A stretch of DNA of 64,000 nucleotides from Acidobacteriota bacterium (GTDB taxonomy: Bacteria > Acidobacteriota > UBA890 > WLXD01). A model generated the notes under the pieces. That model worked only from the letters and a program-made list of their open reading frames with translations. It ran no database searches and was not told where the DNA came from. The translations under genes were made by a program, and so were the position numbers. Positions 28,360 through 51,987 of the stretch are shown piece by piece; position 1 is the first letter of the stretch; the number at the start of each line of letters is the position of its first letter. The stretch is from positions 1,856,001 to 1,920,000 of the forward strand of contig CBDBHB010000009.1 in the NCBI GenBank assembly GCA_965205505.1. The letters run 5' to 3'.

Positions 28360-28370
28360 CAGGCCACTAG
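28360..28370. repeat. Family A MITE end remnant CAGGCCACTAG between convergent stop codons
   Basis: Identical to the last 11 bp of element A (51977-51987). Confidence 0.5.
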
Positions 28371-41009: not shown

Positions 41010-41380
41010 TGACCCGCGAGGCAGGGGAACCGCTGTCGAGATGATCGGCAGAGGAAAGTCGGGACTCCACAGGGCGGCGCGCTGGGTAACCCCCAGCGGG
41101 GGAAACCCCGGGAAAGTGCCACAGAGAACAGACCGCCTGCGGCCTTCGGGCTGTCGGTAAGGGTGAAACGGTGGGGTAAGAGCCCACCAGTGTCGGGGGC
41201 GACCCCGGCAGCTAGGTAAACCCCGCGTGGAGCAAGGCCAAATAGGGAAGCGATGGGCTGGCCCGGCCCGGCTTCCGGGTAGGCTGCACGAGGCGTCGGG
41301 AGACCGGCGTCCCAGATTCATGGTTCCCAGCCTGGCTTCGGCCGGGTGAACAGAATCCCGCTTACTCGCCTCGCGGGTCA
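41010..41380 (+). ncRNA. rnpB: RNase P RNA, bacterial class A
   Basis: GAGGAAAGTCGGG, GAAAGTGCCACAGA, GGTGAAACGG..GGTAAGAGC, GGTAAACCCC..GAGCAAG, AACAGAATCCCGCTTA; P1 helix TGACCCGCGAGGC/GCCTCGCGGGTCA. Confidence 0.96.
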
Positions 41381-41499
41381 GCTCCGTAATCGTCAGGCGT
41401 GCCACACTTGCAGCACGGCCTGTTGCAGGCTGTTAGAGGCCACTTCTAAGAGAAGGCCTAGTTCGGTCAAGGGCAATGTGGTGGCCAGCGAAGAATCGA

Positions 41500-41640
41500 T
41501 CTGCACGCCATGCTCCTATTCGCACTCTGGTGGACGAGGATTCAGGTCGTCCGGTGCATTCTGGGGTCCGTCCCGATTCGAGGCGCTGCAATCTAGCTGC
41601 CGAGCTCGAAGCTCGTAGTGACCTTCGCAGTCGCCCGGAC
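41500..41640 (-). ncRNA. Putative bridge/seek RNA in the IS1111 3' non-coding region (boundaries approximate)
   Basis: Stem/internal-loop/stem at 41582-41635 whose loop strands AGGTCACT and CTAG match the insertion target. Confidence 0.72.
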
Positions 41641-41704
41641 CGGGCGGTCAGATCGATAACCGTTGGGTCGCGTCGCCCTACCGACCTCCTGGTTGCGGGT
41701 TAGT

Positions 41705-42748
41705 TCATGCTGCTGAAACCTCTACAGGTGCGCGCAACGGTTCGTACTCGTCTCCACTCAGCCACAGTCGGTGCAGCACAACGGCGAGCTTACGGGCGAC
41801 AGCAACTGCTGCCTTTTTGTTGCCATGAGGACCACCGCGTCCGGCCAGCTTGAGCCCCCAGCGTCTGAGCTCAGTATCGGGCCCGAAGGGGCCCAGGATG
41901 TAATGCGCCGAGCCCACCAACAGGCGTCGGAGCATTTTGTCGCCCGCCTTGGTTATTCGTAGCGCAGGGTCCTTGTCCCCCGACTGCCGTTTCTTCGGTC
42001 TCAGTCCCAGGTACGGGCCCACGGCTCTGGAGGTATTGAACCGTTCCGGCTCCTCGAGCGTCAGCACATACGCCAGTGCGGTCAGAGCTCCGACCCCGGC
42101 CACTTGCTGGAGCTGCTGTGTCTCCGGGTATCGCCCCTGGCACAGCTGCACGATCTGACGCTCGTATTGCTGGATGTTGCCCGTCAGCATGGCGATCGTT
42201 TCAAGCACCGGCTCGAGCGCTCCCTTGAGCCGCTCCGGTATGTGCTCTGGCGCGGTGCGCGCGAACGCCGGCGTCGAGCACCTGGGAATACGACAACCGG
42301 CCGACTTGACCGCACCACGCACATGGCTCACCAACTGCGTGCGGCTCTTTACCAGAGCATCTCGGCTCCGAATCACGGCTAGATCCGCTCGCGCTTGTCT
42401 GCCTCGATGCTGCACCGTCTTAAGCAGCTTTGGGTCCATTCTGCCCACTCGTGCCAGGTGCTCGGCATCCAACCGGTCGGTCCGTGCTCGCCATAGATCA
42501 GCTTCAGCCGCCTCGGGTTAGCCACCAGCACCTCATGACCCAGTTGCTTCAACTGCTCACTCATCCACGGCGAGTGCGTTCCAACCTCCAGCACTAACTC
42601 GAGCGGGCTCCTCGCACCCGAACCGCCTCGCCAGCCCCTCCGGGCTCGTCCTCACCCGCCCTTCCTCCATCACCCTGCCCTTACTGTCGAGCACGCACAT
42701 ACGGCTGTACCGGTCGCTTACGTCCAGTCCAATCGTTACACTCCTCAT
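41705..42748 (-). pseudogene. IS110-family DEDD recombinase, two frameshifts (~42595, ~42483)
   Basis: IGLDVS, VLEVG, TDRLDAEHLAR, VAGVGALTALAY, YLGLRP..RQSG, RITKAGD, VAVARKLAVVLH spread over three frames. Confidence 0.9.
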
Positions 42749-42845
42749 CGGCCAACCTCCTTGGGCTTCGAGCCCGTTACGTTTGAAGAAACGTTTGCAG
42801 AGCCGTCAGGCTACTGCGTTCAGGAGGTTGGCCTTCTCATCTCAT

Positions 42846-43292
42846 CTAGAAGGGGATGTCGTCATCGTTGATGGGGGCGTCGCCACCACCACCGCTACCG
42901 ACAGCGTCACCGTCAGCGCCGCCGCCCGCCGGGCCGGGGTCACCGTAGTCGCCGCCTCCACCACTAGCGGCGCGGCCGAGCAGCTGGATGTTATCGGCGA
43001 CGACCTCCGTCGTGTAGCGCGTGTTGCCGTCGCGATCCTCCCACTGGCGTGTCTGCAGACGACCCTCGATGTACAGCTGCTTCCCCTTGTTGGCGTACTG
43101 GTTCACGATTTCGGCCGTGCGTGCCCAAGCGACGCACCGGTGCCACTCCGTCTGCTCCTGCTGGTTGCCGTCGCGATCCTTGTACCGGCGGCTCGTGGCA
43201 AGCGAGAAGTTGGCCACGGCGGTGCCGCTTGCCGTGTAGCGCAGCTCGGGGTCTCTACCCACGTTTCCCAACAGGATGACCTTGTTAACCAT
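42846..43292 (-). CDS. ssb: Single-stranded DNA-binding protein
   Basis: VNKVILLGNVGRDPELRYT, TEWHR, IEGRLQTRQW, C-terminal DDDIPF. Confidence 0.97.
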   Translation of the reverse strand: MVNKVILLGNVGRDPELRYTASGTAVANFSLATSRRYKDRDGNQQEQTEWHRCVAWARTAEIVNQYANKGKQLYIEGRLQTRQWEDRDGNTRYTTEVVADNIQLLGRAASGGGGDYGDPGPAGGGADGDAVGSGGGGDAPINDDDIPF

Positions 43293-49744: not shown

Positions 49745-51436
49745 ATGCTGAGCTATTTGCGGATCCGCGACCTCGCGCTGATCGAGGATGTTGCCATCGA
49801 GCCGCCCGCCGGCCTCGTCGCGTTCACCGGTGAGACGGGTGCTGGCAAGTCGATCATTCTGGGCGGGCTGTCGTTGGCCACGGGGAACCGCGCGGCGCTC
49901 GATCAGGTGCGCACCGGGGCGGATTCGGCCACTGTAGAAGCGGTGTTCGACATCACCGGTCGGCCTGACATCGCCGAGTTGCTGGAGCATGAGGAGCTGT
50001 CACCGGAGTCTGGCGAGATTCTTGTTCGCCGCACCCTAGGCAGCCGTTCCAGTCGCGCCTATGTCAACGATCGGCTGGTCACCGTGGGCCTTGTCCACAA
50101 GTTGGGCACGCGCCTTGTGGATATCGCCGGGCAGCACGAGAACCAATCGCTGCTGGCGTCGGCGGCGCAACTCGAGCTGCTCGATCGTTTCGGCGAGCTC
50201 TGCGCACAGCGCCTCGCTGTGGCGAGGGCGTGGGATGAGGCGGTGGATCTGCAACACCGGTCACAGGTGCTGGAGACGGACGATCGCGATCGTGCCCAGC
50301 GCGCCGATTACTTACGCTACCGCGCACAGGAGATCCGCGCCGCCGATCTCGGCGTCGACGACGAGGTGGCGTTGAACGCGGAGCGCCAGCGGCTGCGACA
50401 CGCCGAAGACCTCTCGGCGGCGACCGCGGAGGCGTTGGATGTTCTCTACGAGCGCGAAGAATCGGCGGCAGCTCTCATTCGCCGTGCTCAACTCGTCATC
50501 GAGAGAATTGTCCGGCTCGATACCGGTGCGCCGGCCAGCGGCGATGACGCCGCCGAGGCAGGTTACGCGATCGAGGAGATTGCCCGTTCGCTGCAGACGT
50601 ACCTCGACCTGGTGCAGGTGGACCCGGTGCGGCTCGATGCGGTCGAGGAGCGTCTGGCGACCTTTGATGGTCTACGGCGCAAATACGGCGATCGAATCGA
50701 GGACATCCTGCAGGTAGCCGACGACGCTGAGCACGAGCTCGCCTCGCTCGACAACCGGGATCAGGAGATCGCTGAGCTGGCCGGCCAGGTAAGGCAAGCA
50801 GTACGGGGCTTCGACGAGGCGGCCTCGAACCTGAGCACGCTACGGGCCGAGGCAGCGACGCGACTATCCGAACACATTACTTCGGAGTTGCAGAAGCTTG
50901 GCATGGAGGGAGCCCGTTTTCAGGTTCGGTTGAAGCCTGGCAGCGCCAACGCCGAGGGTGGATTGCCGCCAGGAGCCAGCCGGCGCGGTTATGAAACCGT
51001 CTCGTTTCGCCTCGCCGCTAACCCTGGGGATGCGCTGGGCCAGCTGGTGCGAGTCGCCTCCGGCGGGGAGCTCTCACGCGTGATGCTGGCGCTGAAGCTG
51101 ACGGAAACGCGTCAGGCGCCTGCCCAGACGCTGGTATTCGACGAGATCGATGCCGGGGTAGGTGGGGGTCGCGTTGCCGACCGACTGGCGACGAGGCTGG
51201 TCGAGCTCGGGGCCAGACATCAAGTCCTGGTGGTCACGCATCTGCCGCAAATTGCTGCCCGGGCGACAACGCACTATCGCGTCCGCAAGGCCGAGCGCGA
51301 CGGACGCGTGTGTGTGTCGGCGGCAGCGCTCGACGTCGAGCAGCGCATCGAAGAGCTGGTCCGCATGCTAGGTGGCATCGGTGAATCTCGTAGTGTGCGC
51401 GAGCATGCCCGTAGCCTGCTGGGCGAGCTCACCTAG
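49745..51436 (+). CDS. recN: DNA repair protein RecN
   Basis: FTGETGAGKSII, GQHE, VASGGELSRVMLALK, FDEIDAG, VTHLPQIAA; start reset to MLSYLRIRD. Confidence 0.95.
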   Translation: MLSYLRIRDLALIEDVAIEPPAGLVAFTGETGAGKSIILGGLSLATGNRAALDQVRTGADSATVEAVFDITGRPDIAELLEHEELSPESGEILVRRTLGSRSSRAYVNDRLVTVGLVHKLGTRLVDIAGQHENQSLLASAAQLELLDRFGELCAQRLAVARAWDEAVDLQHRSQVLETDDRDRAQRADYLRYRAQEIRAADLGVDDEVALNAERQRLRHAEDLSAATAEALDVLYEREESAAALIRRAQLVIERIVRLDTGAPASGDDAAEAGYAIEEIARSLQTYLDLVQVDPVRLDAVEERLATFDGLRRKYGDRIEDILQVADDAEHELASLDNRDQEIAELAGQVRQAVRGFDEAASNLSTLRAEAATRLSEHITSELQKLGMEGARFQVRLKPGSANAEGGLPPGASRRGYETVSFRLAANPGDALGQLVRVASGGELSRVMLALKLTETRQAPAQTLVFDEIDAGVGGGRVADRLATRLVELGARHQVLVVTHLPQIAARATTHYRVRKAERDGRVCVSAAALDVEQRIEELVRMLGGIGESRSVREHARSLLGELT

Positions 51437-51987
51437 AGTGGCCTGTAACAGATGATCGTTGCATATCGCAGATGGGATTTGCGGGTGAGATCAAGGCGCG
51501 GCGAGGATGTCGATGCTAGCAGGCCGTGATGGAAGTGTGGTGGGTCTGGCAAGTGGGACTCACGGGCTAGGGCAAGGATCGACGACGAGGCGATGCTGGA
51601 GCCATCGTCGAGGAGGAGAGACGCCGCCATCGCCCGTGACTCCCACTTGCCCTACGGGTTACGCCGCCAAGGGCGCGTCTCCGGCGTTGCCGCTCCTAGA
51701 CGATGCGCACGGGCATCGCCGGCGACGCGGCGCCTTGGATCTGCGCCCTTGGCGGCGTAACCAGACCCATCACACTTCCACCACGGCCTGCTGGGGCATC
51801 GTCGACGAGCCGCAACGCCGATATCGCCCACAACTGCCCATCTGTCCGGAGGATGGCGGCGAAATGGGCCCGTCTGCGGCGTTGCTTCTCCTCGGAAGCT
51901 GGGCCAACATCGTCTCGTCGTAGCGCCTGGCATCCGGACCCATTCCGCCACCACGATATGCAACGATCATCTGTTACAGGCCACTAG
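51433..51987. mobile_element. MITE family A (32-bp perfect TIRs), interrupted by a family B copy
   Basis: AGTGGCCTGTAACAGATGATCGTTGCATATCG (51437-51468) and its exact reverse complement (51954-51985); CTAG at both flanks. Confidence 0.92.
51520..51790. mobile_element. MITE family B, two-module copy nested in element A
   Basis: CAGGCCGTGATGGAAGTGTGGTGGGTCTGG ... CCAGACCCATCACACTTCCACCACGGCCTG flanked by CTAG / CTGG. Confidence 0.9.

Follow-up and report, generated by a model that had tools for sequence, protein, structure and literature searches.

What decides where a mobile element lands? The question is raised by an insertion sequence (IS) of the IS1111 group on the minus strand of a 64,000-nt stretch of Acidobacteriota bacterium DNA (assembly GCA_965205505.1, contig CBDBHB010000009.1, positions 1,856,001 to 1,920,000), hereafter the window. 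The element sits against a degenerate tip of a miniature inverted-repeat transposable element (MITE), and a preliminary description of the window proposed that it carries a readable guide RNA programmed against the end of this MITE. Our analysis supports the core of that proposal: with a probability of roughly 0.9, the element finds its integration site by means of an RNA whose coding region lies downstream of the transposase gene. The mechanism itself, described in 2024, is not new; the element adds a clear new example of it.

The host genome (5.98 Mb in 9 contigs, 64% G+C) provides a natural collection of insertion sites. A BLAST search of the genome with the element returned 33 pieces, comprising 27 full-length copies (98.5-100% identical) and about five partial ones. 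When the sites are read in the transposase orientation, as they are throughout, the right flank is AGTGGCCT in 26 of the 27 full-length copies and AGTGACCT in the other, while the left flank ends in CT in 25. Across 29 left junctions, T is found at position -1 in 28 and C at position -2 in 27; one exception is apparently a copy with an extra ATGAG unit in its left extension. The empty site is CT^AGTGGCCT; its single AG doubles as the opening dinucleotide of the element, so that insertion duplicates no target sequence. Genome-wide, 30 AGTGGCCT sites and one AGTGACCT site are occupied, and all 31 insertions have the same orientation, with the right end beside the tip. The window copy follows this pattern: as first reported, removing 41445-42847 joins ...CTGTTAGAGGCCACT to AG..., which matches CTGTTACAGGCCACTAG (51971-51987) at 16/17 positions.

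Many such sites are still free. There are 277 AGTGGCCT words in the genome, 30 of them with the IS, 109 after CT and 138 after other bases, and 111 unoccupied CTAGTGRCCT sites remain. In the window, AGGCCACTAG with at most one mismatch is seen four times against 2.3 expected, and the two unoccupied perfect sites listed in the preliminary description, at 28361-28370 and 51978-51987, are indeed present.

The non-coding region downstream of the transposase gene folds into a structure that presents two short guides. ViennaRNA predicts, for the minus strand of 41560-41660, an outer stem GGGCG-A-CUGC/GCAGCGCC and a hairpin CGAGCU/AGCUCG, with the guide strands in an internal loop (-43.7 kcal/mol, z = -2.5; 5/200 shuffles are as stable). 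This agrees with the stems drawn earlier, and the loop strands are also where they had been placed, AGGTCACTA at 41624->41616 and CTAG at 41596->41593. The 5' strand, AAGGUCACUA, is complementary to the top strand, and the 3' strand, GCAGCUAG, is identical to it; the two overlap at T-AG. By 'top' strand we mean the strand in transposase orientation, which we assume to be the usage of PMC11187229. AAGGUCACUA pairs with T-AG-TGGCCT, including one G:U pair, and leaves the base beside the stem unpaired. The rarer site, AGTGACCT, is the perfect Watson-Crick complement of the 5' guide, whereas AGTGGCCT needs the G:U pair. This target part of the RNA is invariant in 27/27 copies, with no variable alignment column between 1157 and 1275.

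If these strands are guides, they should change along with the target in related elements. We searched 401 sampled genomes of the phylum and found the transposase at E <= 1e-60 in 20, including the host genome; a search of the order at E <= 1e-40 found it in 3/26 genomes. The relatives' transposases are 47-58% identical to the element's protein. Their ends read AGATGGG or AAATGGG, then ATGAGAAGGCC ... GGCCTTCTCAT, GGA or AGA, and a flank starting AG or AA, with terminal extensions of 6-8 nt on the left and 3 nt on the right. Their non-coding regions have a common frame, in which GG[GU]GACUGCG is followed by a variable stretch of about 10 nt, a hairpin that also varies, a second variable stretch (about 8 nt, with the core at its end) and AU[UG]GCAGC (also written GG[GU]GACUGCG-guide-hairpin-guide-AGAU[UG]GCAGC). 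This stem-loop-stem frame is kept in 16 relatives, and the outer stem and the hairpin are also found by RNAalifold, together with a second stem. Six of the nine pairs of the outer stem, P1, show compensatory changes, and 98% of its cells are paired. Over the whole structure, 93.7% of cells are paired, compared with 85.0% in shuffles (0/500 reach the observed value) and 27-48% with slid partners, and 9/17 pairs have changed on both sides; the observed covariation score is reached by 0/500 shuffles.

The guides themselves follow the targets. In 17 distinct elements, the longest complementary run between the 5' guide and the element's own core plus right flank averages 7.0 nt, against 3.56 nt with other elements' targets, and the suffix match of the 3' guide to the element's own left flank plus core averages 5.9 nt, against 1.9 nt. 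Neither observed sum is reached by any of 5000 guide/target permutations (0/5000), although the relatives are kin, so that the permutation and shuffle figures overstate independence and are not true probabilities. The 17-element test left out further copies of counted elements (L080, L082, L084, L085 and L086), one element with no left flank (L075), four at a contig end or with ends not found (L063, L070, L071 and L073), one with no end motif, from an unpublished genome (L065), and a split copy that was read separately (L033/L036). Even the core is tracked: where it is AA, the 5' guide contains UU and the 3' guide AA, the left end is AAATGGG and the donor guide is ATAGAAA.

Several elements outside this test can be read by eye. 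The metagenome elements L088/89 (9 and 7 nt) and L092 (7 and 7 nt) fit, and L091 fits partially, only with an odd core. The closest relative, in genome G006 of the same order, has 63-68% amino-acid identity and the same left end as the window element; its guides ACGGACUCUA/CCGAGUAG fit its target, GAGT-AG-AGTCCG. This copy (L036 + L033, G006:C1:3908161-3911885) is interrupted past residue ~150 by some 2.7 kb of inserted DNA, the start of which, as judged from its translation, appears to hold a helix-turn-helix-like open reading frame (ORF). In an exact scan, no metagenome contig matched 25 nt taken from the 5' guide region, and a pattern scan of genome contigs with the transposase gave one relative only, at 43% identity.

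The RNA also appears to contain a part that reads the element's own ends. The possible right donor guide, UAGGAG, that was pointed out in the preliminary description is real and is kept across the family. In 24/26 scored loci the 3' donor guide is identical to the right-end tail plus core over 7/7 positions, with the switches GGA/AGA and AG/AA included; in the window element and L080 the figure is 6/7 (L083 was left out of the scoring). The family has a conserved donor module, ..ACCCCAnn[AG]UGCAC-hairpin-GUGCGnAU[GA]GAAG, in which the CCCCA stretch changes together with the left extension in L062, L069, L075 and L079, as judged by eye. At the level of sequence, the relatives show covariation of guide with target, of guide with element end and within the stems. 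The proposal of a guide RNA appears well founded on these comparisons, and the comparison of flanks in the genome and in relatives revealed no copy with the same loop at an unrelated site.

Could the transposase protein alone read the site, or a hairpin-like MITE tip, with the RNA complementarity a coincidence? A number of observations weigh against a guide RNA and have to be set beside the evidence above. The guide match of the window element is by itself not rarer than chance: a 9-nt run of Watson-Crick and G:U pairs against CTAGTGGCCT is reached by 333/5000 mononucleotide shuffles of the 260-nt non-coding region. The 5' guide meets the MITE tip with one G:U pair and one unpaired stem-side base, and the 3' guide is mostly unmatched at real insertion sites, which match 2/6 of its non-core bases and leave the four bases GCAG unmatched. 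The distal GCAG does not distinguish used from unused sites either, with a mean of 1.31/4 bases matched at occupied and 1.12/4 at unoccupied sites, a negligible difference. Among the relatives, L069, L076, L078 and L079 have 5'-guide runs of 4-5 nt only, and L064, L068 and L077 leave the A of the core unpaired. In the donor part, a C lies opposite the A of ATGAG in all 27 copies and in G006, and one position of AUAGGAG is a non-identical base, where a G-T wobble is possible. Finally, Rfam has no match to 41400-42900 at E <= 10.

The evidence beyond chance comes from outside the window, from the 27/27 copies at the same short site and from the co-change of guide and target in relatives. The guides co-change with the flanks in the 17 elements, a fit is also seen in the closest relative and in three elements beyond the test, and the protein scaffold and the ends stay constant while the targets differ completely. 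Furthermore, experiments on other IS1111 members found the RNA to be essential and reprogrammable (PMC11187229). We therefore regard recognition by protein alone as very unlikely. As for the donor part, the preliminary description saw no left donor guide and suspected decay. A left guide is present as CCCCA with one C-A mismatch, and because this mismatch is in all 27 copies and in the closest relative, it is not decay of the window copy.

The landing site is itself a mobile element, and this bears on two further explanations. The family A MITE of the preliminary description is real: it is ~275 bp long and non-coding, with terminal inverted repeats of ~31 bp, and the genome holds 26 convergent repeat pairs less than 700 bp apart, the commonest spacing being 273 bp (nine pairs). 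The 10-bp target word is the tip of this MITE, CTAG plus the start of the terminal repeat, and most insertion sites are MITE tips. Among 80 tips of the main type, 13 are occupied, 60 are free with CT and 7 are other; close variants number 10 (5 occupied) and second-type tips 7 (6 occupied). The CTAG at both MITE ends may be a target-site duplication or part of the repeat. Free tips have A at -3 in 62/111 and C at -4 in 58/111, mostly as (C)A-CTAG, whereas occupied tips have A at -3 in 8/29; the MITE seems to prefer an ACTAGT-like site. A search for an autonomous partner found no repeat pair 617-6000 bp apart in the genome, with a strict 15-nt pattern only.

The MITE is also found in 4/4 other species genomes searched from the same genus and in 8/10 further genomes from the family. 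Counts of the exact 17-nt tip are 1, 30, 79 and 64 in these same-genus genomes and 60 in the host genome, against 0 for a reversed control. The search of the order (E <= 1e-40) found the transposase in 0/4 of the same-genus genomes. The MITE thus appears to be older than the IS in this lineage, because it is widespread in same-genus genomes where the transposase was not found. The arrival and spread of the IS were probably recent, and the 98.5-100% identity of its copies agrees with this.

A few variants of the MITE are worth recording. A double-length form of 548 bp lies at 51437-51987, and its right tip is one of the free sites named above. Its left tip (near 51432-51443) reads CTAG-AG-TGGCC, the sole case in the genome with an extra AG, which could be a footprint with both core copies kept after IS excision, or chance. 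The target word stands in tandem (CTAGTGGCCT-CTAGTGGCCT) before two MITE copies, at G000:C8:5184 and G000:C9:464076.

One might suppose that the AGTGGCCT flank belongs to the element, either because its ends were misplaced or because IS and MITE form a composite, in which case the target preference would be an artefact. The right flank is repeated at most copies, and Siddiquee et al. (PMC11187229) warn that wrongly placed ends give false target logos. However, not every flank is a MITE. Of the 31 occupied flanks, 12 pass a strict full-repeat test and four more have a variant, B-type tip; the other 15 fail it and have mostly the first ~15-21 nt of a tip, a variant tip or an indel, and about four have nothing tip-like past AGTGRCCT, with conservation ending after those 8 bases. 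Outside MITEs, then, flank conservation ends after AGTGGCCT, the same point where guide complementarity ends. In addition, the host genome has the 111 unoccupied CTAGTGRCCT sites, three same-genus genomes in which the transposase was not found carry 30-79 exact 17-nt tips, and the ends obey the 7/3-nt rule and are common to relatives with unrelated flanks. Taken together, these observations make misplaced ends or a composite scarcely credible. They also refine the target AGGYCA-CT-AG given in the preliminary description: it holds at 31 sites in one orientation, while its placement at a MITE end fails for the roughly four sites that have no tip beyond AGTGRCCT.

The flank of the window copy is one of the shorter ones, AGTGGCCTcTAACAG followed by CCTGcAACAGGCC. 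It resembles a degenerate mini-palindrome of two tips, and similar ones are free elsewhere. The possibility that solo tips of ~15 nt are carried by the IS as a footprint was ruled out, because solo tips and two-tip mini-palindromes also occur without the IS.

The reverse order of events, in which the MITE inserts beside the IS and uses the IS end as its target, could draw on the CTAG that flanks the MITE as a possible target-site duplication of its own and on the similar CT|AG at the IS junction, but we give it almost no credence, since main-type tips without the IS outnumber occupied ones by 60 to 13, the MITE is common across related genomes that yielded no transposase match, and the IS also occupies AGTGRCCT sites without a MITE.

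Site choice by an RNA guide thus remains our preferred reading, and the unusual point of this element is the looseness with which its guides fit the sites actually used. The guides spell GCAGCT-AG-TGACCTT, which is not the MITE tip, and the ~30 filled sites have only CT-AG-TGGCCT in common. To use them, the system would tolerate a G:U pair, an unpaired base on the stem side, a 3' guide with four bases unmatched, and donor guides that each contain a mismatch. Is the element a recent arrival that works in a 'half-site' mode, with the MITE tip as a near-cognate target? This is a possibility that we entertain without leaning towards it. If true, the natural insertions in this genome would document how few bases of its guide an IS1111 recombinase requires, and how a guide programmed elsewhere can capture the repeats of a resident family as near-cognate landing pads.

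The assignment to the IS1111 group was likewise made in the preliminary description, and every feature of the group that we looked for was found. We place the element there on the basis of its subterminal repeats, 7-nt and 3-nt extensions, downstream non-coding region, 348-amino-acid DEDD transposase and GL-P----SG motif. Its ends are consistent with the 7-nt/3-nt extension rule of PMC11187229, and GLRPKKRQSG fits the GL-P----S/TG motif that the same paper gives for IS1111-family enzymes. ATGAGAAGGCC/GGCCTTCTCAT form an exact 11-bp subterminal repeat in 21/27 copies, with one mismatch in the window copy; repeats of about 11-13 bp are given for the group in PMC11187229. The non-coding region takes up 260 nt between the transposase stop codon (41705) and the right end, and 99 nt precede the start codon. 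The intact protein matches PF01548 (E = 1.1e-17) and PF02371 (E = 5.7e-17), and it scores 205.5 bits (cut-off 140) against NF033542, 'IS110 family RNA-guided transposase', an NCBIfam assignment that reaches the overall IS110 family only. Matches to the solved transposases of ISCro4 and IS621 were found as well, and the D, E and DxxD of the protein align with those of ISCro4.

An intact gene for this protein, whose 348 amino acids fall within the 330-350 expected for the group, is present in 10 copies, among them the one at G000:C9:1190476-1191881. The window copy is frameshifted. Its first transposase fragment stops after a 1-nt T insertion near 42596 (alignment column 252), and its third begins after a 4-bp deletion near 42481 that takes away the frame of the DKTDRLD motif. 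The 4-bp deletion within the DKTDRLD codons is common to 12 copies, the extra T upstream of it is found in the window copy and two others, and five copies have a 1-bp deletion. Because its own gene is frameshifted, the window copy could move only with transposase from outside, that is, from the 10 intact copies. The preliminary description had called for a repaired transposase for laboratory work; the intact copies make this unnecessary.

The variants are mosaic and unlinked among the 27 copies (alignment columns 105/106, 252, 367-370, 510/511, 703, 809 and 1371). They could stem from gene conversion, from helped movement of defective copies and later recombination, or from repeats that were mis-polished in the assembly; some of the frameshifts and mosaic variants may thus be assembly errors. 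We considered a lineage of the 12 frameshifted copies that spread with the help of intact copies and set it aside, as the variants are mosaic and such a lineage is inseparable from gene conversion or mis-polishing. Three truncated or internally deleted copies (G000:C8:891216-892371, C8:147553-148316 and C9:311919-313143) retain the right end and the whole RNA-coding region, and could still be a source of guide RNA.

How might the parts work together? By analogy with characterised family members (PMC11187229 and PMC11208160), the RNA would be made, bound by the protein and used in recombination. The element would excise as a circle, and the joining of its ends would set the conserved TTGAC box opposite GAAGAT, giving transcription of the transposase gene and the non-coding region. 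The latter would yield the RNA, known as seekRNA or bridge RNA. In its target part (41636->41582) a stem would enclose the internal loop, whose 5' strand would pair with the top strand T-AG-TGGCCT and whose 3' strand would pair with the bottom strand at CT-AG. In its donor part (~41566->41513), CCCCA would match the left end of the element and AUAGGAG its right end, both around the same AG core. Strand exchange by the DEDD transposase would then take place at this core, which is CT on the opposite strand, and the element would land in one orientation between CT and AGTGGCCT, the 10-bp MITE tip word. In the family comparison, TTGAC stands 19-20 nt from the right end in 22/22 relative loci and in the window element, and GAAGAT falls 17-18 nt after it only across the circle junction. 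We infer a junction promoter, TTGAC/GAAGAT, from the analogy to promoters of this kind that are known in the IS1111 family (PMC11187229).

The features of the window copy are collected in the table below. The element is placed between ssb (42846-43292, minus strand, PF00436) and the bacterial RNase P RNA (41014-41380, plus strand), which is complete, belongs to bacterial class A (287.6 bits, model positions 1-367) and is the sole match of Rfam at gathering thresholds in the whole window. The 3' end of the RNase P RNA is 64 nt from the IS, and the degenerate mini-palindrome lies in that spacer. On the other side, the ssb stop codon TAG is made up of the flank T (42848) and the element's first two bases AG (42847-42846), and the same codon is present in the empty site.

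Features of the window copy of the IS1111-group element and of its target, in order of transposase orientation (positions are those of the window)
Feature	Position	Strand	Basis or remark
Whole IS1111-group element, 1403 bp, non-autonomous copy	41445..42847	-	Ends from 27 full-length copies and their flanks
Left-flank half of target, AG (CT in transposase orientation)	42848..42849	+	Empty-site reconstruction
Left terminal extension AGATGAG, 7 nt	42841..42847	-	First two bases, AG, are the core dinucleotide common to the target
Left subterminal inverted repeat ATGAGAAGGCC	42830..42840	-	Kept in relatives
Transposase fragment 1, 63 aa, N-terminal DEDD domain	42557..42748	-	ORF list and copy alignment
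Transposase fragment 2, 71 aa, shifted frame	42379..42594	-	ORF list and copy alignment
Transposase fragment 3, 255 aa, PF02371 and GLRPKKRQSG motif	41705..42472	-	Domain match and copy alignment
Outer stem P1, 5' strand GGGCGACUGCG	41626..41636	-	ViennaRNA fold and covariation
5' target guide ('T' guide) AAGGUCACUA	41616..41625	-	Complementary to top strand T-AG-TGGCCT
Variable inner hairpin P2, CGAGCU-UCG-AGCUCG	41601..41615	-	Fold and covariation
3' target guide ('B' guide) GCAGCUAG	41593..41600	-	Only CU-AG matched by real sites
Outer stem P1, 3' strand UUGCAGCGCC	41582..41591	-	Fold and covariation
Putative 5' donor guide CCCCAGA	41560..41566	-	By eye; faces left end TGAG, one C-A mismatch
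Donor-part stem-loop UGCAC...GUGCG	41521..41558	-	Helix 3: 92.6% of cells paired, no compensatory change
3' donor guide AUAGGAG	41513..41519	-	6/7 match to right-end tail plus core, ATAGA-AG
TTGACC, -35-like hexamer 20 nt from right end	41465..41470	-	Family comparison
Right subterminal inverted repeat GGCCTTCTCtT	41448..41458	-	T in window copy, A in 21/27 copies
Right terminal extension AGA, 3 nt	41445..41447	-	Copies and relatives
Right-flank half of target, degenerate MITE tip CTGTTAGAGGCCACT	41430..41444	+	Empty-site reconstruction

These findings leave the known mechanism unchanged, and their value lies in the material that they provide. The genome offers ~30 natural insertions for one predicted seekRNA and more than 100 unused matching sites, and some 20 relatives have a common scaffold and differing guides. 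This is a small natural data set on which guide positions matter for IS1111-type enzymes, which are far less studied than IS621, in a clade with clearly readable target and donor guides and with intact 348-amino-acid enzymes. It also illustrates an apparently RNA-guided IS that uses the tips of a seemingly older, family-wide MITE as landing pads, so that genes are spared; the insertion in the window even preserves the ssb stop codon.

How does this element compare with known systems? A 2024 paper (Siddiquee et al., PMC11187229) described the IS1111 seekRNA, where it is encoded, the order of its guides and how it is reprogrammed in nature, and Durrant et al. 2024 (PMC11208160) predicted bridge RNAs with both a target loop and a donor loop for 93% of IS1111 elements. 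In limited word searches of the literature, which are not proof of absence, neither this clade nor the use of this MITE as a target was found described; the supplementary IS1111 bridge RNA predictions of Durrant 2024 and the target logos of Siddiquee 2024 may cover relatives already. The clade appears to be far from plasmid-borne relatives, as the best tblastn matches among plasmid-borne IS110-family genes are <=36% identical to the transposase. The nearest in design are ISEc11, ISPa11, ISKpn4 and ISPst6, for which a seekRNA has been demonstrated (PMC11187229). These have the non-coding region downstream of the transposase gene, subterminal repeats, 7-nt and 3-nt extensions, a transposase of ~340 amino acids with the GL-P----SG motif, and two short guides whose matches overlap where insertion occurs, the guide complementary to the top strand lying 5' of the one complementary to the bottom strand. 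The natural reprogramming seen among the relatives here resembles that of the ISEc11/ISXne4 pair in the same paper. The comparison with these four elements is by description, and the difference is that real sites here match only 2/6 non-core bases of the 3' guide.

A resident MITE as landing site for an IS1111-family element also has a precedent. The IS1111 of Coxiella burnetii inserts into the MITE QMITE2, which hosts 20/21 of its copies at a constant position (Wachter et al. 2018, PMC5896051). That site is a palindrome inside QMITE2, whereas here it is the extreme tip, with half of the site in the variable flank, and the organism, the MITE and the guide sequences of the Coxiella case are all unlike those described here. 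An IS1111-family element is likewise known from a fixed point in the terminal repeat of a Tn3-family transposon, in one orientation as here, but there the host element is autonomous, whereas our host is a ~275-bp MITE for which the 15-nt pattern revealed no autonomous partner. Finally, IS621 of the IS110 group (PMC11208160, 8wt6) also combines a target loop and a donor loop in one bridge RNA, each with a 5' and a 3' guide around a 2-nt core, and a DEDD plus serine recombinase. Its core is CT, compared with AG in transposase orientation here, which is CT on the other strand. Unlike the element in the window, IS621 has its RNA upstream of the gene, the reversed guide order and inverted repeats of 2-3 bp, and its protein matches the transposase here weakly (E = 5.9e-08), mainly in the C-terminal domain.

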